Origin: Microscillaceae bacterium
Lineage (GTDB): Bacteria; Bacteroidota; Bacteroidia; Cytophagales; Microscillaceae
Reading direction: 5' to 3'
DNA: 34,394 nucleotides
Assembly: GCA_012031215.1 (NCBI GenBank)
Contig: JAAUUB010000001.1
Span: 1-34,394 of the forward strand
Shown: piece by piece, positions 2,716-26,166 of the stretch
Layout: each line of letters opens with the position of its first letter
Numbering within the stretch: position 1 is the first letter of the stretch
Notes under the pieces: model-generated
Seen by the model: the letters and a program-made list of their open reading frames with translations, nothing else
Database searches by the model: none
Told to the model about the DNA's origin: nothing
Made by a program: the position numbers and the translations under genes

Positions 2716-5201
2716 TCACAAGGAGCTAGTCGTTTGAGGATACAAACGAACCCGGGCGGCTTTGTGCGCCTCGAGGGCCAGGGACAAGACCTCGCCCGCA
2801 TAATCTACATAGTGAATTTTCAGCCCTTTGATATACTCTTCCTTGATTTCTCCGATATCATTTTGATTTTTTCGGCAAAGGATAATTTCTTCAATACCTG
2901 CTCTTTTGGCCGCCAAAATTTTTCCTGAATCCCCCCTACGGGCAAAACCCGGCCTCTCAGGGTGATTTCGCCGGTCATAGCCAGGCGGTCTTTCACCTTG
3001 CGCTGTGTAAAAATAGAAGCCAGGGAGGTGAGCATGGCAATTCCGGCCGAGGGGCCGTCTTTGGGTACTGCACCAGCGGGGACGTGGATGTGGAGATCGT
3101 ATTTCTCAAATTGCTCATTGTCGATGCCCAAATCGCCGGCAATAGATTTAAGATATGACAAAGCCGTGGAGGCCGATTCTTTCATCACTTCGCCCAAATG
3201 CCCCGAGAGGGTCAGTTTGCTTTTGCCAGGGCTCAGACTGGATTCAATGAAAAGAATTTCGCCACCCACGGGTGTCCAGGCCAGGCCAATGACAATGCCC
3301 GGGATTTCAATATTCTGGTATTGTTCAATGTCGTAGCGTTCGGGTCCCAGGAGTTCGCGCACGGTTTCGTGGCTAATCACACTGGGGTAGCTTTCATTGG
3401 TGGCGATGGCCTTGGCTATCTTTCGCGAGATGGCCCCAATTTCTCGTTTTAGACTCCTTACCCCTGATTCGCGGGTATAATCCTCAATGATTTTGGCGAT
3501 GGCCCGCCTTTCAAAACGAATATCTTTGGCTTTGAGGCCATGGTCTTTGCGTTGCTCCGGCACGAGGTGTTTGCGGGCAATTTCTGTTTTTTCTTCCAGG
3601 GTATAGCCATTGATCTCGATGATTTCCATTCGGTCGCGCAGGGCCGGATGAATCGTATCAAGCGAGTTGGCGGTGGCGATAAAGAGCACGTGCGACAAGT
3701 CAAAAGGCAGCTCGAGGTAGTTGTCCATAAAACTATTGTTTTGCTCAGGGTCGAGCACCTCGAGCAGGGCCGAGGCCGGGTCGCCACGCATATCTGAGGC
3801 CACTTTGTCAATTTCATCCAGGATAAAAACCGGATTGGAAGACTGCACTTTTTTGATATTTTGGATGATACGTCCCGGCATAGCCCCTACGTAGGTGCGG
3901 CGGTGGCCCCGAATTTCAGCCTCATCGTGCAGGCCGCCCAGGGCAATGCGGGCATATTTGCGATTCAGGGCTTTGGCAATGGACTTTCCCAGTGAGGTCT
4001 TGCCTACACCCGGAGGGCCATAAAAGCAGAGAATCGGGCTTTTCATGTCTTGTTTGAGTTTTAAGACCGCCAGGTATTCAATAATGCGGTCTTTTACCCG
4101 TTCCAGCCCATAATGGTCGCGGTCAAGGATTTTGCGGGCCTTGTTGAGGTCCAGAGAATCGTGTGTAAACTCATTCCAGGGTAAATCTGCCAGCAGTTCC
4201 ACATAATTCATGGCCACCGGATATTCGGCTACGGCGGGGTTCATGCGCCCTAGTTTATCCAGTTCTTTAAAGTAATGACGGGCAATTTCCTGCCCCCATT
4301 GTTTTTTGTGGCCGCGTTCGCGTAGGGCTTCTATTTCCTGGTCGCTGTTTTCGTAGCCCAGTTCGTCTTGCAAGACCTTGATTTGCTGACGCAAAAAATA
4401 ATCTCTTTGCTGTTGGTCAAGGTCAGAGTGGACCTTGCTTTGGATTTCGTGCTTCAGCTCAAGAAGCTGAATATCCTTGAGCATATACTCCAGCAAGACA
4501 GTGGCACGGGTGATGCCATCGTTGATTTCGAGAAGCTTTTGTTTATCTACCACCTCAGCATTGACATTTGAGGAGAGGAAATGCGTCAGGAAGGCTGTGC
4601 TCTCTATGTTGTCAAGGGCCAGTTTGGCTTCTTGGGGGATCTCGGGGTTGAGCTGTAAAATTCGGCCCGCAGCTTCTTTGAGCGAGGAAACCATGGCTTT
4701 GGTTTCTTTTTTGTTTTTGGGCGGAAAGGACTCCTTAAGGGTCTGCACGCGTGCACTAATATAGGGGTCTTCGGCCAAAAACTCCAATACCTGAAACCTA
4801 ATTTTTCCCTGAATGATGATGGTGGTATTGCCGTCAGGCAGAACCAACATTTTGAGAATGTAAGCCATCGTACCTACCTGATACAAATCCTCGGTAGAAG
4901 GTTCCTCGATGTTGCTGTTTCCCTGGGCAACGACCCCAATGATACGATTGCCTTTGTAGGCTTTTTTGACTAGCCGGATGGATTTTTTGCGGCTGACGGT
5001 GATAGGAATTACAACGCCGGGAAAAAGCACCGTGTTTTTAACTGGCAATATCGGTAAGGGGTCAATAAACTCGTCATACTCCTGTCCCTCTTCCTCATCC
5101 AGGCTTAGCAGTGGTATCATCTCCACATTGTCTTCATCATCATTTTCCATCCAAAGGGGGGAGGGATAAAGGTGTTTATTCATAAATTTAGTTATAGGCA
5201 T
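2716..5201 (-). CDS. lon: ATP-dependent Lon protease, interrupted by a 1-nt frameshift near 2915-2923 (A4T5 run on the + strand). The C-terminal ~70 aa continue in the ORF 2716..2916.
   Basis: The 793-aa ORF contains the Lon N domain, a Walker A (GPPGVGKTS) and the proteolytic domain (DGPSAGIAM...GEITLRGRVLPVGGIQEK). The canonical Lon tail (KILAAKRAGIEEIILC...) appears in the overlapping ORF 2716..2916 in another frame. Restoring one T in the run gives a continuous read. An acidic N-terminal extension is present. Confidence 0.85.
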
Positions 5202-5393
5202 ACCGTCAATCTGGCATTAAATTAGCAAAAAAAGTATTGTTCTTGTGCAAATAAAAAACAAATCAGGGGTTACATCTTTTTGCAAGGCTTATGCCAGTAA
5301 GGATAAACAAGGCTTAGATAAATTTGGGTTCAAACGCATTATTTTTACAAATTTGCGTTAAAAAGCTTAAAAGCGCATCATTAAAACAAATCA

Positions 5394-24468: not shown

Positions 24469-24715
24469 GAAAAATGTTGAAAATAAGCTTTGAACAATCG
24501 AAACGAATTGCCTGCTTCCGACTAGCTTCCTAAACTAAGCGTTGCCCGGCATATTTACAAATGATTATGGCCTGAAAACCCCCGTTTTTCTCGAGTAAGC
24601 CCTGATTCAGGAGAGCCATAAGCAAAACCCGACTGCATTAGACACAGAAAAAATATGAAAATTAAAACAAACTTTTGGGACAAACACCTAATTTTAGGTC
24701 AATTATGAATTAAAC

Positions 24716-26166
24716 TTGAAATCTATGTATCGGGCAGTTATCATCGGCTCGGGCTTTTCAGGCCTGGCCTTGGGCATCAAATTAAAATCGGCTGGCATAC
24801 ACGACTTCATCATCCTGGAAAAAGAGCAGGAAGTAGGCGGAACCTGGCGCGAAAATACTTATCCGGGGGCGGAGTGTGATATACCCTCAGCATTGTATAG
24901 TTTTTCTTTTGAGCCCAACCCAAATTGGGAGTACAAATGGTCGCACCAGCCCCAAATCCTGGAATATCTCCGGTATTGTGCCCAGAAATATGGCCTTTAT
25001 CCCCATATTCGGTTTGGGCAGGAGGTCAAAGCCGCTTGTTTTCAGGAAAAAGAGGCTTGTTGGAAAATAAGTACCCAAGACAATAGCACCTTTCTTGCGC
25101 AATCGCTGGTGAGCGCCGTGGGGCAACTGCATCATCCCCGGATGCCTTCTATTGCGGGGTGGGAAAAATTTGCTGGCCCAAGCTGGCATTCGGCCCGTTG
25201 GAACCACGAAGTACCCCTGGAAGGCAAGCGGGTAGGGGTGATAGGCAATGCGGCCAGTGCGGTGCAGTTTATCCCTCAGATAGCCCCCCGGGCCGGGCAG
25301 CTTTATATTTTTCAGCGAAGTGCCAACTGGATGATTCCCAAACAGGACCGCCCTTATCATGACTGGGAGAAAAAAATGGCGGCTCGGTTTCCAATTTTGC
25401 TCAAACTCTATCGCAATCAACTGTGGCTCAAAGGAGGCGCTTTGTTCTTTTTGATGGGCCAAAATCAACGTTTAAAAAAACTGGCAGAAGCGTATGTCAA
25501 AAAATACATCCAGGAAACCGTACACGACCCAGTTTTGCAACAAAAGTTGATTCCGGACTATCCCATCGGGGCCAAGCGGATTCTTTTTTCAGATGATTAC
25601 TACCCTGCCCTTAATCGGGCCAATGTTCACCTCATCACAGAGAATATTCGCGAGATTAGGGATAAAGGGGTGTGCCTGAAAGATGGAAGCGAAATCGCCC
25701 TGGACATACTCATTTTCGGAACCGGTTTCAGACCAATCCTTTCTTAATGGGGCTGGATGTGCAAGGACTTGGAGGCAAAAGTATTCACGAAGCCTGGAAA
25801 CAGGGGGCCGAAGCTTATCTGGGCATCACCACCACAGGCTTTCCAAATTTATTTATGATGTATGGGCCCAATACCAACCTGGGGCATAACTCTATCGTGA
25901 TTATGAGTGAGTGCCAGGCCGATTACATCACCCAATGCTTGGCCACCCTCAAAAAGCACCAGTTTAGATACATGGACGTGAAGCCCGAAGTACAACAGGC
26001 ATACAATGCCGAGATGCAAAAGCGCTTGCAGCAGTCGGCTTGGGCACAAATATCGGATAGTTGGTACAAATCAGGGGATAAAGTTACCAACAACTGGCCT
26101 GGCCGTACAATGGAATACGAAGCCCGTACCCGACAAGTAAACTATGCCGCCTATCACCTTTTGTAA
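24716..26166 (+). CDS. Class B flavin-dependent monooxygenase (Baeyer-Villiger/FMO type). Frameshifted: one C is missing near 25729-25731.
   Basis: Rossmann motif VIIGSGFSGLALG. BVMO fingerprint FAGPSWHSARW (FxGxxxHxxxW). Second dinucleotide site VGVIGNAASAVQ. ORF 24716..25747 ends ...LIFGTGFRPILS*. Inserting one C gives LIFGTGFQTNPFLMGLDVQG... and continues into ORF 25672..26166. Confidence 0.7.

Follow-up and report, generated by a model that had tools for sequence, protein, structure and literature searches.

Single-base frameshifts across a Microscillaceae metagenome contig very probably reflect sequencing and consensus errors

Introduction

Pseudogene-rich genomes are well known from lineages in early reductive evolution, such as Mycobacterium leprae, Sodalis glossinidius and Shigella, in which many genes are interrupted, often by one lesion each, and in which nonsense mutations, deletions, insertion elements and relaxed constraint are also found. 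A different case is that of programmed frameshifts, as in prfB (+1) and dnaX (-1), and of transcriptional slippage in some endosymbionts, on poly-A and on long A or T tracts generally, where two ORFs are joined by a change of frame at a slippery run, the shift being conserved among relatives and associated with defined motifs. Phase-variable tracts, in turn, usually comprise at least 8 G/C or at least 9 A/T and lie near the 5' end or the promoter of surface-protein genes. Finally, frames may be broken by the sequencing itself: low-coverage Ion Torrent and 454 assemblies carry one-base under- and over-calls whose rate rises with run length, under-calls dominating the long runs, so that adjacent ORFs rejoin after a one-base edit, at a density of about one per 2 kb when coverage is few-fold, while unpolished nanopore assemblies and MAGs show mostly deletions in runs at a similar frameshift density.

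The stretch of 34,394 nt analysed here (the window) shares with the pseudogene-rich genomes its many interrupted genes, often with one lesion each, and with the programmed systems the joining of two ORFs at a run; nevertheless, it shows none of the other lesions nor the relaxed constraint of the former, and, unlike the latter, its sister species is in frame everywhere. It resembles the homopolymer errors of Ion Torrent and 454 data in every respect listed above, except that 3 of its 14 events fall outside runs of at least 3 bases, the platform being itself presumed. The nanopore case is likewise similar, although the insertions in the window (C5, G7 and the G in ACGTAC), together with an accession series that we take to date from 2020, better suit a flow-based platform. 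The sequence alone does not separate a flow-based from a nanopore origin. A first-pass annotation had attributed the broken genes to indel errors and not to gene decay or programmed shifts, and every test run favours that reading.

Origin of the window and genomes compared

We take the HC913/NJL115xx accession series to belong to a stromatolite study that used Ion Torrent sequencing. The window is part of the NCBI MAG "Microscillaceae bacterium" (locus tags HC913_, proteins NJL11548-11573), and has a GC content of 48.17% and a coding density of 91%. A stromatolite MAG study (BioProject PRJNA612530) contains three Microscillaceae bins, one of them at 48.2% GC, and used Ion Torrent P1 reads assembled with SPAdes --iontorrent, the listed coverage being 1-5x for most bins. 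On the basis of this one paper and of the presumed accession series, the window was probably derived from that study. A literature search on the HC913 and NJL accessions returned nothing relevant.

The comparison was made with an independent sister-species assembly, GCA_054666115.1 (MAG2), whose contig BAAHIE010000005.1 is colinear with the window over positions 2-34394 at 86.0% DNA identity, with fully conserved gene order, and which is matched exactly over 18.5 kb by an independent Logan assembly of run DRR684998. Other sources contributed less. GTDB species representatives scanned with GpmI gave none above 70% identity and no synteny, and were thus of no use for DNA-level comparison; JGI metagenomes scanned with a 275-aa protein yielded no relative; and the window proteins, looked up exactly in the contig index, had no match there, the same proteins being present in the protein collection.

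As the first-pass annotation had expected of related genomes, all 26 genes are intact in MAG2, including every gene broken in the window, and MAG2 is in frame at all the sites where the window is shifted. In eight of the broken genes the MAG2 protein (693, 247, 182, 495, 568, 480, 505 and 294 aa) has the repaired length or differs from it by one residue, and in Lon (811 aa in MAG2) and IspB (309 aa) the choice of start codon is the sole difference in length.

This comparison also bears on the idea that the genes are functional as written, being decoded through programmed ribosomal frameshifting or transcriptional slippage. Some of the sites are indeed slippery-like, and the OmpA/PD40 gene contains a formal -1 heptamer, T TTT TTG; however, programmed shifts are conserved among relatives, whereas the sister species needs none at any site. 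Moreover, the sites have no common motif, both +1 and -1 corrections are required, efficient transcriptional slippage would require longer runs than the 2-7 bases found here, and one gene (MscS-cNMP) would need three such shifts. The likelihood of this explanation is therefore practically nil.

Frame breaks and repaired genes

Frame arithmetic gave, for each gene, the zone within which the shift must fall, and the sites found by comparison with the orthologs are collected in Table 1.

Table 1. Frameshift sites in the window, with the difference from the intact ortholog and the length of the repaired product
Gene	Gene coordinates	Site	Strand	Difference from ortholog	Repaired length
First gene, 5'-truncated (homolog of a 1010-aa TPR protein)		C5 at 45..49	+	C4 in MAG2; one extra C	656 codons
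lon	2716-5201	T5 (+ strand letters) at 2919..2923	-	T6; one base missing	828 aa
OmpA/PD40	5394-7474	T7 at 6220..6226	+	T8 in MAG2; one base missing	693 aa
Fatty-acid hydroxylase	9839-10580	10332..10348	+	T7 10332-38 vs T8; TTT 10346-48 vs TCTT/TTTT	247 aa
PLP-dependent decarboxylase, C-terminal tail	10577-12055	10590..10597	-	base apparently missing near CC 10592-93	505 aa
ispB / polyprenyl synthase	12197-13170	A4 at 12512..12515	+	A5; one base missing	324 aa
Small membrane protein	13696-14243	13841..13862	+	T6 13841-46 vs T8; extra T 13861-62; net one base missing	200 aa (172 from ATG), one-base edit
S8 peptidase	15066-16554	16233..16237	+	extra G16235 (ACGTAC vs AC-TAC), outside homopolymer	495 aa
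MscS-cNMP channel, site 1	20629-22329	C6 at 21551..21556	+	CCCCTCC; one base missing	567 aa (three sites)
MscS-cNMP channel, site 2	20629-22329	22022..22029	+	one base missing: GG 22022-23 or A5 22025-29	
MscS-cNMP channel, site 3	20629-22329	C3 at 22067..22069	+	C4; one base missing	
TPR-like secreted protein	~22301-23225	G7 at 22392..22398	+	one extra G	307 aa
Baeyer-Villiger / flavin monooxygenase	24725-26166	T3 at 25726..25728	+	T4 in MAG2; one base missing	483 aa

The ten genes named as split by the first-pass annotation are all so, its ORF pairs and triplet exist, the letters it had read at each position are correct, and single-base edits at or beside its sites give one ORF each. In lon, OmpA/PD40 and ispB the missing base falls within the stretch proposed. 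Repaired Lon reads ...GGIQEKILAAKRAG..., and its Lon_C match, found before in two pieces of 215 and 36 bits, becomes contiguous (2-204, 266 bits), while repaired IspB reads ...NALWKNKIAVLVGDF... with a contiguous polyprenyl_synt match (3-249, 224 bits). In fact, each Pfam domain that was cut in two before repair (Lon_C, FA_hydroxylase, polyprenyl_synt, Peptidase_S8 and cNMP_binding) gave one contiguous, higher-scoring match after it. Repaired OmpA/PD40 has precisely the length of its MAG2 counterpart.

The three shifts claimed for the MscS-cNMP gene were all found, the first and third at the C6 and C3 runs as proposed; the second is more parsimoniously placed at GG 22022-23, where MAG2 has GGG followed by A5, than in the A5 run, even though A5->A6 also mends the frame. 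After repair, site 1 reads ...EQAPPDKVKRLL..., where P310, K312 and V313 are invariant or near-invariant in 10 sequences, site 2 reads ...LAKNAIFGEMALL... and aligns with the orthologs, and site 3 brings back the cNMP-binding motif GEPRKATVRA. The cNMP_binding match is then contiguous (8-86, 68.9 bits vs 19.9 before), and all three junctions align with 9 orthologs. Although broken three times, the gene otherwise retains 94% protein identity to its ortholog.

In other genes the shift was confirmed and its position amended. The region 16233-16243 proposed for the S8 peptidase does contain an extra base, which lies in no homopolymer; the MAG2 protein, which is as long as the repaired product, reads ARGAGTTVGAPGDY, and the Peptidase_S8 match becomes contiguous (1-288). 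In the monooxygenase the break is directly to the left of the proposed bases 25729-31, the repaired protein reads ...ILIFGTGFQTNPFLMGLDVQG... (480 aa in MAG2), and the junction aligns uninterrupted through PAMO 1w4x. The TPR gene, which had been considered only possibly frameshifted, at A5 22423-27, is indeed so, the MAG2 alignment placing the event in the G7 tract instead. There the end of the signal peptide is severed from a 264-aa ORF, frame 2 running ...FGIGLWMAW and frame 0 AAQAQTPRQKQVDSLL, while MAG2 reads FGIGLGLVCSVAKAQ...LQVDSLL in one frame; the edit G7->G6 restores a single ORF. This G7 tract is specific to the lineage of the window.

Two genes apparently carry paired events. In the fatty-acid hydroxylase gene the shift zone spans just 23 nt and includes the T7 run to which the shift had been assigned, but the alignment with MAG2 contains two 1-nt gaps, so that two bases are likely lacking rather than one extra. 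Two separate one-base losses are the most likely history: their repair gives LVFFPVVLLHH, as in MAG2, and the MAG2 length, with a contiguous FA_hydroxylase match (5-132) of 90.9 bits vs 89.7 for the single edit. That edit (T7->T6, 246 aa) also restored the frame, but was rejected for its poorer fit to the ortholog. Similarly, the T6 run of the small membrane-protein gene is affected as claimed, but by more than one edit, a second difference being the extra T further on; the single edit T6->T7 restores the frame with a poorer ortholog fit than the two-event repair, whose version '...EVFFGGSLSLFAL...' agrees better with the homologs. The family comprises proteins of 171-184 aa (8 homologs and the 182-aa MAG2 ortholog were aligned), and its conserved N-terminus MIDW..Y..LM.DFK sits in the upstream ORF of the window.

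Two sites had escaped the first-pass annotation. At C5 45-49 the frame passes from 'GFGFAFMAYLLSNFAP' to 'VMAEPSPLDE', MAG2 reading GFGFAFMAYLLSNFAPVMAEPSPLDE in one frame, and removal of one C leaves a single open frame. A probable, though tentative, loss affects the decarboxylase tail, where repair lengthens the protein from 492 aa to the MAG2 length and changes its end to ...LLENMASSPLK...NPK before the stop (...LQKQMASPLK...PQK and stop in MAG2); the assignment is tentative because this tail is poorly conserved.

A number of further differences were considered and rejected as frameshifts. Paired indels in ActB (32487/32498) and OmpA (5533/5539) are alignment artefacts or compensated changes in diverged stretches, the window ORFs being intact, and the same applies to those in the CCP and decarboxylase N-termini and in the TPR gene (22722/22730 and 23070/23076). 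Nor is the 525-nt gap at 13171-13695 another broken gene, since it has no codon periodicity and no ORF in common with the sister genome.

The effect on the deposited record is as the first-pass annotation had foreseen, with genes split or under-called. Six fragments were deposited as separate proteins of 310, 168, 422, 312, 164 and 264 aa (NJL11548.1, NJL11553.1, NJL11559.1, NJL11565.1, NJL11566.1 and NJL11568.1), four of the six being labelled 'hypothetical', among them the N-terminal piece of OmpA/PD40 (NJL11548.1), and the last being the shortened form of the TPR protein. Lon and IspB have no protein whatever in the NCBI record. In large protein collections, these fragments now represent clusters.

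Number, kind and distribution of the lesions

The alignment of the window with MAG2 revealed 14 frame-breaking differences and one probable further one. All are indels, of which 13 involve a single nucleotide and one involves two. Both insertions and deletions occur, as had been claimed, with 4 gains and 10 losses relative to MAG2. Among these approximately 15 lesions there is no nonsense change, larger deletion or insertion element. This amounts to about 0.48 lesions per kb of coding sequence, with some 40% of the genes affected, Lon and IspB among them.

Most of the shifts fall in homopolymers, much as had been claimed. The enrichment is far stronger than chance would give, since 7 of the 14 events lie inside runs of at least 5 bases, which make up 5.5% of the bases (binomial P=3.6e-6), and the share of coding runs broken rises from about 1% at a length of exactly 5 to about 3% at 6 and about 12% at 7 or more. 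On the other hand, three events (S8 16235, TT 13861-62 and GG 22022-23) are outside runs of at least 3. The last 8 kb contain no frameshift, which has P=0.02 if events are uniform over coding sequence; in this part, however, coding runs of at least 7 are absent and runs of 6 much scarcer, which lowers the expectation to some 2.3 events, with P then estimated at about 0.1. It should be borne in mind that replication slippage favours homopolymers too, and homopolymer bias alone therefore cannot tell error from mutation.

Run lengths are also relevant to the suggestion that a subset of the shifts is real, namely that the T7/T8 of OmpA/PD40 and the G7 of the TPR gene are phase-variable tracts, or reflect strain heterogeneity in envelope genes, with a consensus that happens to be out of frame. 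Both tracts have at least 7 bases, the proteins they interrupt are predicted to be secreted or located in the outer membrane, and the lineage-specific G7 would fit such a role. Nevertheless, the OmpA tract is in the middle of the gene, no tract reaches the 8 G or C that typical contingency loci carry, cytoplasmic housekeeping genes bear the same kind of lesion at the same rate, and a single cause accounts for all the sites. Phase variation or strain heterogeneity at these tracts is very unlikely.

Selective constraint

No stop codon is met in the broken genes when they are read in register with the intact ortholog. The pooled dN/dS is 0.062 for broken and 0.053 for unbroken genes, with a dS of ~0.66-0.71, a divergence so deep that very recent inactivation would not show. 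Constraint downstream of the shifts is as strong as upstream: dN/dS is 0.014 downstream vs 0.020 upstream in Lon (97.4% amino-acid identity), and 0.021 vs 0.012 in IspB (0.019 overall, 97.1% amino-acid identity).

These data weigh against a genuine and very recent mass pseudogenisation, in which host restriction or the loss of repair would have allowed slippage to inactivate about 40% of the genes. Slippage mutations would likewise favour homopolymers, and one lesion per gene is what very young pseudogenes look like. However, some 15 lesions would have accumulated with no nonsense change, larger deletion or mobile element among them, housekeeping functions such as Lon and IspB would have been lost, and MscS-cNMP would have been hit three times while keeping its close identity to the ortholog; besides, the unchanged constraint downstream of the shifts, the 48% GC, the 91% coding density and the preserved gene order give no sign of genome erosion. 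Such a history is accordingly very unlikely. More broadly, it is very improbable that the shifts, or even a part of them, are genuine, whether as those of a free-living-type lineage at the onset of slippage inactivation (for instance, after loss of mismatch repair) or with the OmpA/PD40 and TPR tracts acting as phase switches.

Conclusions

Since the sister genes are intact, the edits restore the ORFs, the breaks track run length and no other lesions are present, we infer that the frameshifts are, in all likelihood, a technical artefact and not mutations of the organism. They would be errors of base calling and of the consensus in a MAG of low coverage, sequenced on a platform that miscounts homopolymers. 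In the organism itself Lon, OmpA/PD40, hydroxylase, IspB, S8 peptidase, MscS-cNMP channel, TPR protein and monooxygenase, among others, are most likely encoded at full length.

The biological interest of the frameshifts themselves is low, and their significance is one of data quality. A rate of some 0.5 frameshifts per kb of coding sequence would mean that about 40% of this genome's genes are mis-called, which would lower completeness estimates, distort metabolic reconstruction, as in the seeming absence of Lon or polyprenyl synthase, and create false 'orphan' families. Frameshift-aware gene calling or correction is needed in any work with this MAG, and probably also with its sister MAGs of that study.

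Split genes and their repair

The window (34,394 nt, GC 48.2%) is densely coding and contains the split ORFs that the first-pass annotation had described; the bases it had reported at each coordinate also match the sequence. For each split pair, the obligatory shift zone and the sign of the shift were computed, the zone in the fatty-acid hydroxylase being only 23 nt long and including its T7 run. One single-base edit per proposed site gave one unbroken ORF per gene, as had been claimed. Repair made every affected Pfam match contiguous and raised its score: Lon_C from 2-166 plus 156-204 to 2-204 (266 bits), FA_hydroxylase from 5-76 plus 85-132 to 5-132, polyprenyl_synt (ispB) from 3-81 plus 85-249 to 3-249 (224 bits), Peptidase_S8 from 1-213 plus 227-288 to 1-288, and cNMP_binding from 8-45 only to 8-86 (69 bits). 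The monooxygenase junction aligned without a break through phenylacetone monooxygenase 1w4x, and the repaired MscS-cNMP protein aligned over its full length with nine orthologs (523-595 aa), in which all three junctions are flanked by invariant or near-invariant residues (APPDKV, LAKNAIFGE, GEPRKATVRA). In the small membrane protein, whose family measures 171-184 aa, the conserved N-terminus MIDW..Y..LM.DFK falls in the upstream ORF.

Comparison with a sister genome

The MAG GCA_054666115.1, from a sister species, has proteins sharing clusters with those of the window, and 46 kb of its contig BAAHIE010000005.1 (117,847 bp) were compared. Positions 2-34394 of the window are colinear with it throughout, at 86.0% DNA identity, and over 18.5 kb the contig is identical to a Logan assembly made independently from run DRR684998. 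All genes are intact in the sister: full-length orthologs, which the first-pass annotation had expected in a related genome, exist there for every broken gene (Lon, 811 aa; OmpA/PD40, 693; hydroxylase, 247; PLP-dependent decarboxylase, 505; IspB, 309; small protein, 182; S8, 495; MscS-cNMP, 568; TPR protein, 294; monooxygenase, 480). Their lengths are the same as in the repaired window or one residue apart, except for Lon and IspB (828 and 324 aa in the window), where start-codon choice is the sole difference.

Site by site, 14 secure events and a probable one were found across 11-12 genes. All are indels: bases are lost in 10 cases and gained in 4, and the change is 2 nt at one site and 1 nt at the other 13. 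Two sites are new, namely the C5 run in the truncated first gene and, tentatively, the decarboxylase tail, whose repair gives the sister length of 505 aa. Correcting both losses in the hydroxylase yields LVFFPVVLLHH, the same as in the sister genome. The A5 run at 22423-27, previously suggested for the TPR protein, proved to be the wrong site: the shift sits in a G7 run, where G6 restores the frame and connects ...FGIGLWMAW with AAQAQTPRQKQVDSLL. Just after the signal peptide of this protein, the window and the sister differ by 15 nt (5 codons) with the frame kept, which looks like a true evolutionary indel rather than an error. In the sister genome, the convergent hydroxylase and decarboxylase genes overlap at their 3' ends by ~44 nt; repair of the decarboxylase tail would create an overlap in the window as well.

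Table. Split genes, frame-breaking differences from the sister genome, deposited fragments and other features of the window
Feature	Coordinates	Site	Window vs sister	Shift	Deposited as
First gene		45-49	C5 vs C4	+1	
lon (minus)	2820-5201 + 2716-2916	2919-23	T5 vs T6	-1	
OmpA/PD40	5394-6326 + 6194-7474	6220-26	T7 vs T8	-1	310 aa, N-fragment, hypothetical HC913_00020
Fatty-acid hydroxylase	9839-10345 + 10347-10580	10332-38	T7 vs T8	-1	168 aa, N-fragment, hypothetical HC913_00045
Fatty-acid hydroxylase		10346-48	TTT vs TCTT	-1	
Decarboxylase tail (minus)		about 10592-93		probable -1, tentative	
Convergent 3' ends	10538-10580				
ispB	12197-12532 + 12526-13170	12512-15	A4 vs A5	-1	
Non-coding gap	13171-13695				
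Small membrane protein	13642-13899 + 13845-14243	13841-46	T6 vs T8	-2	
Small membrane protein		13861-62	TT vs C	+1	
S8 peptidase	15066-16334 + 16192-16554	16235	extra G, ACGTAC vs AC-TAC, outside homopolymer	+1	422 aa, separate protein
MscS-cNMP channel	20629-21567 + 21564-22058 + 22006-22329	21551-56	C6 vs CCCCTCC	-1	312 aa, separate protein
MscS-cNMP channel		22022-23	GG vs GGG (A5 to A6 at 22025-29 also works)	-1	164 aa, middle fragment, hypothetical HC913_00115
MscS-cNMP channel		22067-69	C3 vs C4	-1	
TPR protein		22392-98	G7 vs no run	+1	264 aa, truncated, hypothetical HC913_00125
TPR protein, in-frame difference	22411				
Flavin monooxygenase	24716-25747 + 25672-26166	25726-28	T3 vs T4	-1	
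Conserved 150 nt	26350-26498				
HNH endonuclease	26499-27020				
tRNA-Cys (GCA)	29019-29093				
actA	29415-30722				
actB	30768-33956				
actC	starts 34001				

Error, mutation or programmed shift

Runs of at least 5 nt make up 5.5% of bases but hold 7 of the 14 events (binomial P=3.6e-6), those of at least 3 nt hold 11 (P=7e-5), and the share of coding runs with an event rises from ~1% (exactly 5) to ~3% (6) and ~12% (at least 7). No frameshift occurs in the last 8 kb (26200-34394; S1, ActA, ActB), for which P=0.02 under uniformity; nevertheless, this is not significant, because about 2.3 events are expected, by estimate, from the length-specific rates. This part has no coding run of at least 7 nt, and runs of at least 6 at 1.4/kb versus 3.8/kb elsewhere; long runs seem to be avoided here by highly conserved, highly expressed genes. 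Intergenic homopolymers at 5233, 13291, 16608 and others are shorter in the window than in the sister (A7 vs A8, A6 vs A7, T6 vs T8); indel errors probably affect such regions too, where they are not separable from real differences.

The homopolymer bias alone does not decide between error and real mutation, since replication slippage is biased likewise. The condition of the genes, nonetheless, argues against mutation: pooled dN/dS is 0.062 in broken versus 0.053 in unbroken genes (dS about 0.66-0.71), and constraint downstream of each shift equals that upstream. Moreover, ~40% of genes are affected, Lon and IspB included, a gene with three events still has 94% protein identity to its ortholog, and synteny, GC and coding density (91%) are all normal. 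The window's broken genes contain no stop codons when read in the intact ortholog's frame, and none of the lesions is a nonsense change, a larger deletion or a mobile element. Programmed frameshifting is ruled out in practice, the sister species being in frame at every site without a shift; the site contexts have no common motif and need corrections in both directions. The original interpretation as sequencing error is supported by the lack of extra lesions, the unchanged dN/dS and the intact sister orthologs, and the frameshifts are very probably technical indel errors, not biology.

Other features

Upstream of the HNH-endonuclease gene, 150 nt share 96% identity with the sister, versus the 86% genome average, and the preceding 200 nt just 55-62%. 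This 150-nt region has no Rfam family and a modest fold (z = -2.0), whose main hairpin is not conserved in the relative; it may represent a promoter, a small RNA or a conserved leader. The endonuclease (173 aa) shows 98.8% aa identity to the sister species and a dN/dS of 0.014, conservation which is unusual for such a gene and at the level of ribosomal proteins. The 525-nt non-coding gap from ispB to the small membrane gene has 80% identity to the sister genome with only two gap positions; no codon periodicity, ORF in common with the sister genome or Rfam match was found in it. The tRNA-Cys has the S1 gene on one side and the genes of alternative complex III (actA to actC) on the other, the latter a cluster which in the sister genome runs on into cytochrome oxidase genes.

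Sequencing platform and deposited proteins

By exact look-ups, the NCBI record of the window is a MAG of a Microscillaceae bacterium with locus tags HC913_000xx and proteins NJL11548-NJL11573, the window beginning at the start of its 98,394-bp contig. The HC9xx/NJL accession series is probably that of the South African peritidal stromatolite MAGs of Waterworth et al. The stromatolite MAG study (BioProject PRJNA612530; PMC8949462) was sequenced on an Ion Torrent P1 chip and assembled with SPAdes --iontorrent (10.1101/818625), and its Table S3 has three Microscillaceae bins, one of them, SM2_1_3, at 48.21% GC and a listed coverage of 3.0, and 1-5x for most bins. The HC913 record probably belongs to this Ion Torrent study.

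The forecast that automated annotation would split or under-call these genes is borne out, since fragments were deposited separately and no Lon or IspB fragment is among the deposited proteins of the record. The practical value of these results is a quality warning for the MAG and for the fragment proteins seeded into databases; the split genes are very probably not a real biological feature.
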